From: an uncultured Clostridium sp.
GTDB taxonomy: Bacteria > Bacillota_I > Bacilli_A > RF39 > UBA660
Length of the DNA stretch: 46,466 bases
Assembly: GCA_964545285.1 (NCBI GenBank)
Contig: CAZJEW010000003.1
Span: 1-46,466 of the forward strand
Direction: 5' to 3'
A model generated the notes under the pieces. It was not told where the DNA came from and did not search any database. It worked only from the letters and a program-made list of their open reading frames with translations. The stretch's first letter is position 1. Each line of letters starts with the position of its first letter. Positions 5,406 through 8,299 of this stretch are shown piece by piece. Made by a program: the position numbers and the translations under genes.

Positions 5406-6824
5406 ATGGACAATAATGATGGACAAATAATACATGTAAACAAAGATGATCCGGGTAATACCAGTGGTTGTGAATATGATGTATATATTCCAGCGGGAGT
5501 GGATGCAAGCACACCAGTTCATTTATATATTCCAGGAAGTGGTGGATCAAAAAATGATACAGCCCCACTAAAAAATTACCTAGAAAACGATTCAAATTCA
5601 ATAGTAATTATGCCAAATTGGGGATCTGGAGAATCTGGTTCAAATAATGTTTCAACGCAAATACTAACTATTTGTGATTCGGTTATAGATACGTATGGAG
5701 GAAATTCTGAAAACGTAAGTGTAACCGGTTTTAGTCTGGGCTGTGCAAGATCAGTATATACTGCTTATTTAAGCAATTCAGGAGATTATAATACAAAGAT
5801 TAATACATTTGTAACAATTGATGGTTCATATGCAATTAATTCTGATTATATACAAACTTTTAAAGAAAATGATGTTTTGTTTGTATCATTATCCAGTTCC
5901 AATTATCCTTCTAGTGATTTCAAAGCGTATGCTGCAGCAGGCGGAAGTGTATTGTTTGTGAAGCCACTGGAAACAAGACATGTAGCAATTAATTCAAATG
6001 CTTATGCAAATGGATTAATCGATTTTTTAAATGGAACAGGAGATTTAAATCTAGGAGATTCTAATAGACCAAATTATACTTTTCAAACTTATGTAAATGG
6101 TGAATTAGTAACTATCTCATATGAAGAAGCAAAAAAGCTTGTTGAAGAACATTTAGCATTAGTATCAAGTGGAGCAATTGGTAGTATAGGCTCTATATCA
6201 ATAGATACAGTACAATCAGATGTACCAACATTACAAACATATATGGATGCAATCCATAGAAAAATAGAAAGTTCAAACTTTTTTACGTTCAGTGCAAATG
6301 GATTACAAAGTAATACAAAAATTCCAGTAAGTGAACAAGCGGTAACATTACAGTTTTATCGTGCATGTGCAGCATTGTTAGGAAAATTAGTTAATGATAC
6401 AAATTATATATTAACATTAGGATCAAAAATAAATGAAATGGACGAAAACTTGATGAAGAGAATAGACGCAATAGCACCACCAGTAGAAGCAGAAGAAGTA
6501 CCTGAAGTAACAGGAAGCAATACAAGTACAGCAACAACTAGTGAAAGAAGTACATCAGAAAATGTATTAGCAGGGATGGGAACAGGAGCAACAATAGGAG
6601 CAGCAATAGGAGCAACAATAGGAACAATAATTGAACCTGGTGTAGGAACAGTTTTATTAGGAGCAGCAGGAGCAGCAATAGGAACACTAGTGGGAGCAGG
6701 AATAGCATTATGGAGACAATTTATTTCAGGAAAAGATACATACTTTTTTGGATCAAATCCAGGAAGTAGTGATACAACATCAACAGAAACTACAACAGAA
6801 ACAACTGGAAATGGTGGAAGATAG
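5406..6824 (+). CDS. alpha/beta-hydrolase-like head (GFSLG) fused to a helical module, a glycine-zipper hydrophobic hairpin and a Thr-rich tail; no signal peptide
   Basis: AAGGAGG RBS. Nucleophile elbow GFSLG, TIDGSY (Asp) and TRHVAI (His). The C-terminal 208 aa are shared with the next ORF. The (GxxxG)n stretch is GMGTGATIGAAIGATIGTII...LLGAAGAAIGTLVGAGIALW. Confidence 0.75.
   Translation: MDNNDGQIIHVNKDDPGNTSGCEYDVYIPAGVDASTPVHLYIPGSGGSKNDTAPLKNYLENDSNSIVIMPNWGSGESGSNNVSTQILTICDSVIDTYGGNSENVSVTGFSLGCARSVYTAYLSNSGDYNTKINTFVTIDGSYAINSDYIQTFKENDVLFVSLSSSNYPSSDFKAYAAAGGSVLFVKPLETRHVAINSNAYANGLIDFLNGTGDLNLGDSNRPNYTFQTYVNGELVTISYEEAKKLVEEHLALVSSGAIGSIGSISIDTVQSDVPTLQTYMDAIHRKIESSNFFTFSANGLQSNTKIPVSEQAVTLQFYRACAALLGKLVNDTNYILTLGSKINEMDENLMKRIDAIAPPVEAEEVPEVTGSNTSTATTSERSTSENVLAGMGTGATIGAAIGATIGTIIEPGVGTVLLGAAGAAIGTLVGAGIALWRQFISGKDTYFFGSNPGSSDTTSTETTTETTGNGGR
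6201..6824 (+). repeat. direct repeat copy 1 (624 bp, ~99 % identical to 7676-8299)
   Basis: Read side by side, identity starts at ATAGATACAGTACAATCAGATG and runs to the stop codon. I count about 6 substitutions. Confidence 0.9.
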
Positions 6825-6853
6825 AAAAATAATTTAGAAAGGACATATTAGAA

Positions 6854-8299
6854 ATGGAAGAAGCAAAAAATGGAACAATGTATGAAGATGATAATTATTA
6901 TTATTATGTTCCAGACAACTATAATTCAAGTACTAATATAACTTTTTATATTACTAAGGGACAAAATTCAGAAAGTGGGAGTACATTTAAAAGAGAACTA
7001 TTAAATGAAGGATCTGACTCAATTATGGTATTGCCAAAAAATCCTTACACTTCTCCCTCAACATCAGTTGAAAGCATTAATAAATTTATTCAAATGTTTG
7101 AAACAAAAAACAATATTACTTTCAGTGGCAATAATGTTGGAGTAACTGGATGGAGCATTGGTGCTGATTATGCAGCAAGGGTTGCTCAAGAAAGTTATTT
7201 AAGTGGTAATGTTAAAGTAAGCAGTATTATTGCTATAGATGGAGCATATAATGGGTGGAGTATTGAAAATTCTTCTGAAGATTTTTTAAAAAAATTTGGA
7301 AGTGATGGCGGAACCTTAATATCTGTATCAGCATATGATAATAGGACAAAAACATGGAAACAATGTGGTGAAACAGTTGCTAATGCAGGGGGTACTGCAG
7401 TAGTGTTTTCTATTGGTTCAACTTCTGATGCTGGTCATGCATGGGCGAATACTTTAGCATTTAGATGCAATGTTGCCGGAATATTAAGCGGTGGTATTAT
7501 AAATCCGGATTACAATACTGGAAATAGTAGAATACAATATAAAATTGAATATTATGATAAAGAAAATGGAGAGTGGATTGAACTAACTCCTGAACAACTT
7601 CAAGAAAAAATTGCAAAAGGTGAGATTGATTCATCAGCATTGCAAAATACATTAGATCAGCTTTCAAGTGTTACAATAGATACAGTACAATCAGATGTCC
7701 CAACATTACAAACATATATGGATGCAATCCATAGAAAAATAGAAAGTTCAAACTTTTTTACGTTCAGTGCAAATGGATTACAAAGTAATACAAAAATTCC
7801 AGTAAGTGAACAAGCGGTAACATTACAGTTTTATCGTGCATGTGCAGCATTGTTAGGAAAATTAGTTAATGATACAAATTATATATTAACATTAGGATCA
7901 AAAATAAATGAAATGGACGAAAACTTGATGAAGAGAATAGACGCAATAGCACCACCAGTAGAAGCAGAAGAAGTACCTGAAGTAACAGGAAGCAATACAA
8001 GTACAGCAACAACTAGTGAAAGAAGTACATCAGAAAATGTATTAGCAGGGATGGGAACAGGAGCAACAATAGGAGCAGCAATAGGAGCAACAATAGGAAC
8101 AATAATTGAACCTGGTGTAGGAACAGTTTTATTAGGAGCAGCAGGAGCAGCAATAGGAACACTAGTGGGAGCAGGAATAGCATTATGGAGACAATTTATT
8201 TCAGGAAAAGATACATACTTTTTTGGATCAAATCCAGGAAGTAGTGATACAACACCAACAGACTCTACAACTGAAACAACTGGAAATGGTGGAAGATAA
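6854..8299 (+). CDS. paralogue: divergent alpha/beta-hydrolase-like head (GWSIG) fused to the same helical, glycine-zipper and Thr-rich module; no signal peptide
   Basis: GWSIG, AIDGAY and AGHAWAN align with the catalytic-triad positions of the upstream ORF. The last ~208 codons are nearly identical to 6201-6824. Confidence 0.75.
   Translation: MEEAKNGTMYEDDNYYYYVPDNYNSSTNITFYITKGQNSESGSTFKRELLNEGSDSIMVLPKNPYTSPSTSVESINKFIQMFETKNNITFSGNNVGVTGWSIGADYAARVAQESYLSGNVKVSSIIAIDGAYNGWSIENSSEDFLKKFGSDGGTLISVSAYDNRTKTWKQCGETVANAGGTAVVFSIGSTSDAGHAWANTLAFRCNVAGILSGGIINPDYNTGNSRIQYKIEYYDKENGEWIELTPEQLQEKIAKGEIDSSALQNTLDQLSSVTIDTVQSDVPTLQTYMDAIHRKIESSNFFTFSANGLQSNTKIPVSEQAVTLQFYRACAALLGKLVNDTNYILTLGSKINEMDENLMKRIDAIAPPVEAEEVPEVTGSNTSTATTSERSTSENVLAGMGTGATIGAAIGATIGTIIEPGVGTVLLGAAGAAIGTLVGAGIALWRQFISGKDTYFFGSNPGSSDTTPTDSTTETTGNGGR
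7676..8299 (+). repeat. direct repeat copy 2 (offset +1475 nt from copy 1)
   Basis: As for copy 1. Differences: GTA/GTC near the 5' edge, a cluster in the last ~45 nt (TSTETTTE vs TPTDSTTE), and TAG vs TAA stop. Confidence 0.9.

Follow-up and report, generated by a model that had tools for sequence, protein, structure and literature searches.

What do two adjacent genes do whose products open with different heads and close with almost the same sequence, and why has only one part of them been kept alike? The question is raised by ORF1 and ORF2 in the window, the whole stretch of 46,466 nucleotides that was analysed. The first-pass annotation had placed same-strand ORFs of 472 and 481 aa here, and their coordinates are exact, both on the + strand (Table 1). 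Neither reading frame is broken, each is preceded by a good ribosome-binding site and each encodes a complete triad, and from the sequence both genes look real.

Two different heads on one module

Aligned at an offset of 1475, ORF1 and ORF2 are identical at 620 of 626 nt (6199-6824 against 7674-8299), so that the similarity of the two copies is not due to chance. About six substitutions had been counted earlier and six were found, a silent GTA/GTC change at 6224, four in the tail (6780, 6788, 6789 and 6797) and TAG vs TAA at 6824. The identity does start abruptly, as had been claimed, with almost all positions 5' of 6199 differing at this offset, but it begins at 6199, 2 nt before the 6201 given earlier.

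A long near-identical repeat in a metagenome-style contig might be a false duplication of one real gene, the more so as no other recorded contig encodes the exact product of ORF1 and the cluster of ORF2 consists of this contig alone. Given the six differences between the copies, the two intact and distinct heads, each in frame with its own copy, and tandem pairs of the same layout in independent assemblies of other species, such an assembly artefact is very unlikely, and we give it almost no weight.

Table 1. Location of the features of the gene pair in the window
Feature	Position	Strand	Content
Shine-Dalgarno of ORF1	5395..5401	+	AAGGAGG
ORF1	5406..6824	+	472 aa; predicted alpha/beta-hydrolase head, helical hairpin, linker, Gly-zipper hairpin, Thr-rich tail
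Head 1	5406..6176	+	aa 1-257; predicted alpha/beta-hydrolase domain, then beta-hairpin and helix (aa 224-255)
Head 1, G-S-G-G loop			aa 44-47
Head 1, Ser110	5727-5741		in GFSLG
Head 1, Asp139	5820-5822
Head 1, His192	5979-5981
Shared 626-nt module, copy 1	6199..6824	+	tract starts in low-confidence interdomain linker, aa 258-266
Helical hairpin	6201..6476	+	aa 266-357; family-conserved, candidate docking/targeting module; helix 273-288, turn S302-x-T304-x-x-P307, long helix 308-356 (AF2, pLDDT ~82-86)
Acidic/Ser-Thr-rich linker	6477..6563	+	aa 358-386; predicted disordered
Glycine-zipper hairpin	6564..6713	+	aa 387-436; EPGVG between two hydrophobic Gly/Ala-rich segments
Thr/Ser-rich C-terminal tail and stop	6714..6824	+
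Shine-Dalgarno-like of ORF2	6838..6843	+	AAAGGA
ORF2	6854..8299	+	481 aa; divergent second predicted alpha/beta-hydrolase head on the module of ORF1
Head 2	6854..7673	+	aa 1-273
Head 2, Ser101	7148-7162		in GWSIG
Head 2, Asp129	7232-7246		in AIDGA
Head 2, His195	7430-7444		in AGHAW
Shared 626-nt module, copy 2	7674..8299	+	hairpin, linker, Gly zipper, tail

The heads had been described as distant paralogues sharing the motif pairs GFSLG/GWSIG, TIDGS/AIDGA and TRHVA/AGHAW, all of which are present, and the identity between the heads is ~25% (28% by MAFFT, 23% over family-profile columns). Head 2 is without a G-x-G-G loop and carries TKGQNS in its place. The AF2 models have a mean pLDDT of 76.5 for ORF1, with the head above 90, and of 73.1 for ORF2, the two heads being modelled with confidence. 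Foldseek comparison of head 1 with the PDB gave 774 matches at E<1e-3, all esterases, cutinases or PETases; head 2 gave 211 at the same threshold, all esterases, cutinases or acetylesterases. In the ORF1 model the Ser lies between strand 104-109 and helix 112-125, the Asp follows strand 132-138 and the His opens helix 192-201, and the ORF2 model has its triad residues S101, D129 and H195 at the expected strand ends. As modelled, both heads are alpha/beta-hydrolases with Ser-Asp-His in the canonical strand/helix positions and order and a G-x-S-x-G elbow. The same reading had been made earlier from the motifs, and the Foldseek matches, confined to alpha/beta-hydrolases, bear it out.

The division of the shared module into four parts also stands: helices 273-288 and 308-356, linker 358-386, glycine zipper 387-436 and Thr-rich tail. 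A signal peptide had been said to be lacking, and Kyte-Doolittle hydropathy agrees, the maximum 19-residue mean being below 0.7 in the first 40 residues; the sole hydrophobic stretch is the Gly-rich hairpin (ORF1 aa ~387-436). Here the extended zipper motif (G/A/S)xxxGxxxG, defined as in PMC12744356, begins at aa 390, 394, 398 and 422 in a motif scan, and the underlying DNA has a 12-nt periodicity (repeat family D1). Searches of Pfam with the zipper gave only sub-threshold generic Gly-zipper matches (YMGG 0.021, Omp 0.068), and the region is modelled at pLDDT <50 in both proteins.

The hairpin in front of it found no Pfam match at E<=10 over aa 263-372. Aligned by hhalign to the WXG100-like, LxG-like and small helical neighbour families of its relatives, it reached a probability below 2%, and its turn holds no conserved L-x-G, G-x-L or LFG motif. 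An LXG- or WXG100-like nature of this segment, raised by the first-pass annotation, was thus not borne out by sequence or profile similarity (Pfam, hhalign). The helix-turn-helix shape of the AF2 model is compatible with the WXG100/LXG helical superfamily, to which it is not specific.

A small family with exchangeable C-termini

Neither ORF1 nor ORF2 matched any Pfam, NCBIfam or PDB sequence. An exhaustive HMMER search uncovered a small family, with 92 representatives among the 1.84 billion searched, most of which align from head through hairpin as a single unit; the family HMM scores ORF1 at 3.3e-102 and ORF2 at 5.6e-88, and all proteins retrieved with the family profile were of the low-GC MAG type. 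The two proteins belong to a previously undescribed family, TslA and TslM having been compared with it by their descriptions. Its members are built of a head, a helical hairpin of ~90 aa whose turn carries a conserved S-x-T-x-x-P, and a variable C-terminus. In the head S110, D139 and H192 are almost invariant, the complete triad being present in 104 of the 138 family sequences, and in the hairpin the same is true of S302, T304, P307 and L325.

At least five types of C-terminus occur in the family, among them the glycine-zipper tail of the window, an unnamed ~100-aa domain (n=62), no further domain (n=22), a single TM and peptidoglycan hydrolases. The 22 members that stop directly after the hairpin have a TslA-like two-domain layout. 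In several members the last element is a single TM with basic and then acidic residues behind it, and in one (P0037) a WxG-type helical domain replaces the hairpin. Others carry Phage_lysozyme2, CHAP or glucosaminidase domains, which must act extracellularly even though these proteins lack a signal peptide. The C-module is thus shared, as had been seen, but is not one targeting domain; it is rather a family-conserved hairpin followed by an exchangeable module. Classical polymorphic toxins keep the trafficking part at their N-terminus constant and vary the modules at the C-terminus. Here the picture depends on the level: across the family head and hairpin are constant and the C-terminus varies, and within a genome the heads differ and the remainder is shared.

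In the tandem pairs, heads group by type across genomes and hairpins group by genome. Heads of the same type are 0.68-0.76 identical between genomes, against 0.25-0.28 within a pair; hairpins of a pair are 0.70-0.73 identical, against 0.50-0.57 when one type is compared between genomes. The hairpins of the window pair are 100% identical. Since hairpins follow the genome and heads the type, gene conversion is a family-wide habit, and the earlier reading of recent gene conversion at this locus was right and can be widened to the family. On these identities, the family pattern is one of concerted evolution and the window its extreme case. The alignments show the window genes to be old paralogues with different heads, the parts behind the heads having been homogenised by recent gene conversion from the interdomain linker onward.

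Gene context and proposed function

The pair lies in a housekeeping-looking operon of a PP2C phosphatase, DUF1292, ORF1, ORF2 and an AlkD-like gene. Genes for EssC, WXG100, LxG-like and small partner proteins were not found in the 46-kb window by HMMs built from the relatives' partners, nor by Pfam among window ORFs of at least 80 aa up to position 44108, and the window is without T7SS core genes, as previously stated. Genes of immunity type (lipoprotein or membrane protein) were seen neither beside the pair nor in the relatives' cassettes examined. The absence of an immunity gene is unusual for antibacterial toxins.

The relatives have other neighbours. In MAGs of uncultured gut Bacilli, family members adjoin a stand-alone ~170-205-aa protein with an almost invariant L44-x-G46, a ~115-129-aa helical protein, a ~95-103-aa protein and a WXG100 protein, an arrangement present in 11 loci (L001, L003, L007, L009, L011, L013, L015, L016, L017, L018 and L020). 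The WXG100 model TIGR03930 is matched by L009:3121-3429 at 46.0 bits (cut-off 44.85), and in L018 an EssC gene (TIGR03928, 991 bits, cut-off 778) is flanked by four family members and three LxG proteins. The LxG-motif neighbours stay below significance against Pfam LXG (best E 0.05). A type VII link, formerly a guess, is strengthened by these EssC and WXG100 neighbours, which exceed the NCBIfam cut-offs. Because its relatives lie inside type VII secretion gene clusters, the pair probably represents a new type of secreted effector, one of "reverse" layout. As the window holds no partner or immunity gene, its effector status we infer from the relatives.

On balance we lean towards ORF1 and ORF2 being paired type VIIb-secretion substrates of an undescribed family, with secretion deduced from gene context. 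Each protein combines an alpha/beta-hydrolase head of esterase/lipase type with, behind it, the ~90-aa helix-turn-helix hairpin that is the hallmark of the family; beyond fold and gene context, we infer all that follows. The hairpin may pack with separately encoded helical partners, namely the stand-alone LxG-motif protein, the two small helical proteins and the WXG100 protein, which here would be encoded outside the window. Together they would form a composite signal recognised by EssC, so that the head would be exported in "reverse" orientation, as are TslA and TslM of S. aureus. The exchangeable module behind the hairpin, here a two-segment glycine zipper, is predicted to insert into a membrane. 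There it would cause depolarisation, in the manner of the Gly-zipper C-termini of TelE and EsxX, or else tether the enzyme to a membrane surface, and the envelope of a competitor or of the cell itself is a candidate target. The stalks would be homogenised because both proteins must fit one partner set.

The zipper might instead anchor cytoplasmic heads to the inner face of the membrane, making the paralogues T7SS-independent, tail-anchored esterases with lipids or envelope precursors as their substrates, perhaps controlled by the PP2C phosphatase that is transcribed with them. We consider this unlikely. The conserved hairpin would have no role in a plain anchor and its concerted evolution points to a common binding partner, although a missing signal peptide, a sole hydrophobic region near the C-terminus, the single-TM ends of several members and the tight operon-like spacing with PP2C, DUF1292 and the AlkD-like gene would all suit such enzymes. 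Similarly, the window's want of T7SS, partner and immunity genes and the orphan members found elsewhere among housekeeping genes (e.g., L005) agree with it, but in the 11 loci the unit of head and hairpin shows a strong link to cassettes of EssC, WXG100 and LxG proteins, and the peptidoglycan hydrolase domains of other members act outside the cell.

More doubtful still is that the pair is the remnant of an orphaned or decaying T7SS effector cassette, split from its partners and no longer exported, either transient or a recombination reservoir for swaps of heads and tails. The partner genes are absent here and present beside most relatives, but their adjacency is not required; the ORF2 head has no close relative (best identity to any other head 0.30), and T7SS toxin loci are known recombination hotspots, according to PMC13560087. 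Against decay stand the intact reading frames, ribosome-binding sites and triads already described. The G-x-G-G loop lost in ORF2 could be taken as a sign of decay, but the downstream members of other tandem pairs also go without it, which makes the loss a feature of the type.

Should the pair be a type VII substrate, as we prefer, we tentatively raise the possibility of a third, structurally distinct "reverse" substrate class in uncultured gut Bacilli, which asks for three things jointly and to which, taken whole, we would not commit ourselves. A short internal docking hairpin would ride on a toxin-less LxG protein encoded by a gene of its own, the enzyme being in effect fused to a Lap-like partner and not to an LXG domain. 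Cargo would lie on both sides of the hairpin, an N-terminal esterase head and an exchangeable C-terminal module, which here would be a glycine zipper that inserts into a membrane. The fixed tandem would consist of a G-x-G-G type and, downstream of it, a non-G-x-G-G type, and ongoing gene conversion would keep their stalks alike, allowing both heads to be served by one partner set.

Until 2023, type VII substrates were all believed to have an N-terminal helical signal. To our knowledge, only two reverse families had been described by August 2026 (Tsl1 and Tsl2), both of staphylococcal-type lipases. A third would imply that the T7SSb signal can be placed anywhere in the polypeptide and shared between cargoes; distinct here would be the hydrolase head, the internal hairpin, the stand-alone LxG protein and cargo on either side of the hairpin. 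Homogenisation of hairpins by genome, against conservation of heads by type, is a clean natural experiment and points to the surface that has to fit the partner proteins. The family is without a Pfam or NCBIfam model, and its hosts are uncultured small-genome gut Bacilli whose secretion biology is essentially uncharted.

Comparison with known systems

Cutinase/PETase/carboxylesterase-type hydrolases (PDB 6ilw, 3wyd, 4f21, 7yc0) share with the predicted heads the core fold, the Ser-Asp-His order and the nucleophile elbow, with a Foldseek probability of 1.0 and target-normalised TM-scores of up to 0.69 at only 9-17% sequence identity. Unlike the window proteins, these enzymes carry no fused helical hairpin or membrane module.

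Glycine zippers are also found in TelE (PMC10434224) and EsxX (PMC12744356), T7SSb LXG effectors with membrane-acting glycine-zipper toxins at their C-termini. They share with the window proteins an extended (G/A/S)xxxGxxxG zipper near the C-terminus and the lack of a signal peptide, the resemblance of the window being one of motif alone. TelE and EsxX begin with a canonical LXG domain and lack an enzyme head, and their immunity proteins are polytopic membrane proteins and a soluble DUF5085 protein (PMC10434224, PMC12744356); the window pair has no LXG domain and no membrane-protein or DUF5085-type neighbour.

Closest in architecture are the reverse lipase toxins of the T7SSb. The Tsl1 family (TslA/B/C) of Staphylococcus aureus (PMC10730906) has, like the window proteins, an N-terminal Ser-Asp-His hydrolase with GxSxG followed by a helix-turn-helix and no signal peptide. 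A polymorphic N-terminal and a conserved C-terminal part make TslA resemble the window pair, and both families have multiple paralogues per genome. Small helical partner genes adjoin Tsl1 genes, as they do those of our relatives, though not in the window. The TslA head is modelled on the class-3-type lipase Lip2 of Yarrowia (PMC10730906), whereas the window heads match cutinase, PETase, carboxylesterase and acetylesterase structures and the window proteins gave no match to lipase Pfam models, including Lipase_3. TslA carries its helical domain at the end of the chain and requires the G-x-L motif in the turn for secretion; the hairpin of the window is internal, with ~115 more residues behind it and an S-x-T-x-x-P turn. 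An adjacent DUF576 lipoprotein gene gives TslA immunity (PMC10730906), with no counterpart beside the window pair. The relatives' cassettes hold a separate LxG-motif protein, which the portions of PMC10730906 on the TslA locus do not describe there.

The second reverse family, Tsl2 (TslM-P), is presented in PMC13560087 (August 2026). TslM opens with a triad lipase at its N-terminus, continues through a disordered linker and ends in a helical trafficking domain to which a WXG100 partner binds. The window proteins likewise have a triad head, a helical domain and a linker, and the paralogues per genome, up to seven for Tsl2, are multiple in our family too. According to the same paper, the TslM helical domain is terminal, ~150 aa long and has an LFG turn, unlike the window hairpin; its linker joins lipase and helical domain, whereas that of the window follows the hairpin towards a further module; and its immunity proteins are DUF1433 membrane proteins, none being near the window pair. 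The extreme C-terminal helical domain that marks Tsl1 and Tsl2 is not present in ORF1 or ORF2 but is found in 22 other members of their family. Compared by description, the pair thus resembles TslA and TslM, yet it is of a different family, one with an internal helical module.

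The gene pair, its heads and its module

ORF1 and ORF2 lie 29 nt apart, each with a ribosome-binding site, and encode proteins with 57% identity overall. Aligned 1475 nt apart, the two copies of the 3' module differ only at positions 6224, 6780, 6788, 6789, 6797 and in the stop codon at 6824, and immediately 5' of 6199 nearly all bases mismatch in this register. In the translated module 190 identical residues are followed by a few changes within the last 17, while the N-terminal heads share ~25% identity (28% by MAFFT; 23% over family-profile columns). The open reading frames and this alignment, with its six differing positions, confirm as real the gene pair and near-identical repeat described in the first-pass annotation. 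Hydropathy analysis detects no hydrophobic N-terminal segment in either protein, the sole hydrophobic region being a Gly/Ala-rich hairpin (ORF1 residues ~387–436).

Positions of the genes, repeats and comparison loci described in the text
Feature	Sequence	Positions	Product or remark
ORF1	window	5406–6824	472 aa; same strand as ORF2
ORF2	window	6854–8299	481 aa; same strand as ORF1
Module copies	window	6199–6824 and 7674–8299
Loop site, ORF1 and ORF2	window	5532–5549 and 6953–6970
Gly-zipper DNA	window	6557–6710 and 8032–8185
PP2C protein just upstream	window	3729–5392	463 aa
AlkD-like protein	window	8300–8974	224 aa
Tandem ABC-ATPase/FtsX-type pair	window	9068–13721	740 and 809 aa
Tandem GtrII-like pair	window	24708–27739	504 aa each
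WXG100 protein	L009	3121–3429
WXG100 candidate	L003	10681–10986
EssC locus	L018 (CANPYA010000005.1)	1003–14593	uncultured Bacilli MAG
~100-aa C-terminal module	L001	11522–11851

AlphaFold2, run with the family alignment for both proteins, models the ORF1 head with pLDDT >90 over residues ~10–255 and the ORF2 head confidently too. The Ser lies between a strand and a helix, the Asp follows the next-but-one strand and the His starts the helix after the last strand, the positions expected of a Ser/Asp/His triad. Foldseek against the PDB returns alpha/beta-hydrolases only. Its hits at E ≤ 1e-3 number 774 with ORF1 and 211 with ORF2 and include PETases, cutinases, acetylesterases and dienelactone hydrolase, with TM 0.69 for the esterase domain of LC-Est1 and 0.61 for a carboxylesterase/phospholipase. 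The models show two heads of predicted esterase/lipase type, in agreement with the alpha/beta-hydrolase assignment originally made from the sequence.

A G-S-G-G loop is found in ORF1 and ~40% of the family, with TKGQNS at that place in ORF2. Throughout the tandem or near-tandem pairs examined (the window and the relatives' loci L001, L003 and L017) this loop follows strand 3 in the upstream member only, the downstream members lacking it still keeping Ser-Asp-His. The dichotomy suggests an ancient two-type pair with differing oxyanion-hole chemistry.

Behind the head, the ORF1 model has a small beta-hairpin and helix (residues 224–255), a low-confidence linker (258–266) and a helix-turn-helix, hereafter the hairpin, made up of helix 273–288, an S-x-T-x-x-P turn and a 49-residue helix (308–356) at pLDDT ~82–86; hhalign detects no likeness of this hairpin to WXG100 or LXG. 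The last 115 residues, comprising an acidic/Ser-Thr linker, the Gly zipper and a Thr-rich tail, fall below pLDDT 50. The zipper holds four (G/A/S)xxxGxxxG-type motifs and gives sub-threshold matches only to generic Gly-zipper Pfam families. Its DNA displays a degenerate 12-nt tandem periodicity (…GGAGCAACAATA…), so the GxxxG register may stem from short-unit duplication.

Family definition, variable tails and homogenised pairs

Scans of ORF1 and ORF2 against Pfam, NCBIfam and PDB sequences gave nothing meaningful. A word-indexed search of 5.8 billion proteins with full ORF1 found ORF2 as its only match, and one with the two heads alone found none; a genome-collection scan with the C-module yielded no relative, a metagenome scan with ORF1 and the family representatives P0002 and P0026 no match, and an exact-sequence lookup of the ORF1 protein no record. 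As the word-indexed searches gave no family, it took an exhaustive search with HMMER, run against 1.84 billion cluster representatives with a profile of residues 1–368 of both proteins from which the Gly zipper was excluded, to reveal one. This returned 92 proteins at E ≤ 1e-3 (37 at E ≤ 1e-10), mostly of 350–620 aa and aligned to query residues ~20 to 375, indicating that head and helical segment travel together. Nearly invariant in a trimmed alignment of 33 sequences are P29, T36, I66, G108, S110, D139, H192, G210 and Y224 in the head and S302, T304, P307 and L325 in the helical part; of 138 family sequences, 104 have S-D-H. The family is without existing annotation; BD-FAE, Abhydrolase_3 and Esterase_PHB are matched by its weakest members themselves.

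After the hairpin the C-terminus varies. An unnamed ~100-aa domain follows in 62 members, 22 stop directly, eight carry a single hydrophobic segment (Gly-rich tails such as P0002 and P0042 counted in) and five, both window proteins included, a two-segment Gly zipper, while the peptidoglycan hydrolases Phage_lysozyme2 (E 9e-31), glucosaminidase and CHAP occur once each. Several single-segment tails finish with basic then acidic residues. The commonest module reads 'FPxYxELYSDDxKIVY…KVVIHH…G.EYYYD…YVKVxF' and has no Pfam match (best RraB, E 0.025). In P0037 a WxG-type helical domain replaces the hairpin. This variation makes the shared module of ORF1 and ORF2 a composite of the hallmark hairpin and one exchangeable tail, a point on which the initial interpretation, largely right, was incomplete. 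The first-pass annotation had also considered that the module could prove to be a widespread housekeeping anchor, holding unrelated proteins in the membrane. The one hairpin found elsewhere is that of P0040, a 225-aa protein with hairpin and zipper and no head, which may be a fragment; the hairpin otherwise occurs behind this family's head, and the zipper is just one among several tails, on which grounds the anchor reading was rejected.

Two adjacent members with heads of two types are found at each of L001, L003 and L007, and L017 holds two members with partner genes between them. Members of the same type in different genomes share head identities of 0.68–0.76 and hairpin identities of 0.50–0.57, whereas the two members of one pair within a genome share 0.25–0.28 and 0.70–0.73, respectively. 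It follows from this contrast that the heads are old paralogues inherited vertically and that the post-head part has been repeatedly homogenised in each genome. The window pair is the limit of this pattern, its 100% hairpin and 99% DNA identity indicating a very recent conversion event with its 5' edge in the interdomain linker; the tract starts exactly within residues 258–266. Gene conversion, as first proposed from the near-identical module and divergent heads, therefore holds, the same pattern recurring in the relatives' tandem pairs.

P0002, the closest relative of ORF1, and P0042 have heads ~25% and hairpins ~87% identical, both with Gly-rich tails. This pair and P0025/P0040, likewise with near-identical hairpins, Gly-rich tails and heads unrelated or missing, look like further head-swapped pairs.

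Gene context and proposed role

Family members with retrievable context derive from gut metagenome assemblies and from MAGs whose labels are uncultured Bacilli, 'uncultured Mycoplasma sp.' or Candidatus Coprovivens, a taxon assigned to Bacilli incertae sedis. Local HMMs, built from neighbours and iterated over all fetched loci, define a recurrent cassette of one or two family members and four smaller protein types, namely an LxG-motif type (~170–205 aa), a helical type (~115–129 aa) and two further types of ~95–103 and ~101–107 aa. The ~190-aa proteins resemble LXG domains in a nearly invariant L44-x-G46 and, after it, an acidic/aromatic motif ('TLxGxxYDAAR'). Pfam LXG was not significant for them (best E 0.05), NCBIfam gave no match and a PDB sequence search only coiled-coil noise, so the label derives from motif, protein size and gene context. 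Profile scores identify the ~103-aa proteins as WXG100 members, that of L009 reaching 46.0 bits against TIGR03930 (cut-off 44.85) and that of L003 26 bits (E 7.8e-6), under the cut-off. At L018 an EssC, a 1520-aa FHA+FtsK protein (NCBIfam 991 bits, cut-off 778), has family members on both sides, its neighbours comprising four of these, three LxG-motif proteins and two ~124-aa helical proteins. The family is genetically linked to T7SSb components in these relatives. The three LxG-motif proteins stand alone, without a toxin domain; adaptors of this kind for separately encoded cargo would, if true, be unusual in themselves.

Neither the cassette partner families nor a large ATPase occur in the window; L005, L012 and L014 are 'orphan' loci of a similar kind. 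The putative effector role of ORF1 and ORF2 draws its support only from the relatives' gene context. The window is ordinary chromosome (PBP1, sortase, MurD, ParAB), on which ground a phage or mobile-element origin was rejected; a bacteriocin-type peptide was rejected because the neighbouring ABC proteins are of FtsX/MacB type and no C39 peptidase is present. Promoter and terminator scans were uninformative in this AT-rich DNA. G+C is 25% overall and rises to 0.29–0.34 at 4500–8500 (0.30–0.34 around the pair), against ~0.21–0.25 in the flanks. This stretch spans both esterase genes as well as that of the PP2C protein; Gly/Ala/Thr codons explain the rise in part, but it includes the heads too.

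The PP2C protein has a phosphatase of Stp1/IreP type as its C-terminal half (NF033484, E 2.5e-48) and an N-terminal extension of ~200 aa with a weak match to the phosphoprotein IreB (PF06135, E 3.5e-4). The gene is followed after 2 nt by that of an 89-aa DUF1292 protein and, 13 nt on, by ORF1; such a fused IreB-like/PP2C gene beside DUF1292, co-oriented with an esterase pair, is unusual. A link of the DUF1292 protein to the 89-aa gene beside the orphan homologue P0113 was rejected, the two being unrelated. Downstream, the ATG of the AlkD-like HEAT-repeat gene (PF08713 DNA_alkylation, E 1.9e-15) abuts the ORF2 stop (TAAATG). Its product may have a housekeeping function unrelated to the pair, or may be a putative soluble neutralising partner comparable to ExiAB, the soluble immunity to the Gly-zipper toxin EsxX. 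The fused ABC-ATPase/FtsX-type proteins and GtrII-like glucosyltransferases are further tandem paralogue pairs.

In the proposed mechanism a composite secretion signal would arise when the hairpin docks with its LxG, WXG100 and small helical partners, and the zipper would insert into a membrane. ORF1 and ORF2 would use one common partner set, which would explain their homogenisation. The proteins may be antibacterial toxins or, alternatively, the producer's own surface enzymes. The Gly zippers of the T7SS toxins TelE and EsxX are toxic (PMC10434224, PMC12744356); against a toxin role, no immunity-type gene was seen in any of the relatives' cassettes and several tails resemble anchors whose acidic ends would lie in the cytoplasm.

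Comparison with reverse T7SSb substrates

The arrangement is unusual in its internal hairpin, stand-alone LxG protein and paired heads on a homogenised stalk, and the question is experimentally tractable. TslA (PMC10730906) and TslM (PMC13560087) are the only reverse T7SSb substrates described, the second of these papers, from August 2026, terming Tsl2 'only the second' such family. Like both, ORF1 and ORF2 have a signal-peptide-less hydrolase head followed by a helical module; the systems also agree in having polymorphic heads, several paralogues and, as seen in relatives of the window pair, helical partners. Unlike them, the helical module is internal rather than terminal, its turn is without LxG, GxL or LFG, and adjacent partner and immunity genes are absent from the window; unlike in TslA, the head is not Lip2-like. 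As several defining Tsl features are lacking, ORF1 and ORF2 are placed with the reverse T7SSb substrates and filed as candidate members of that type outside Tsl.
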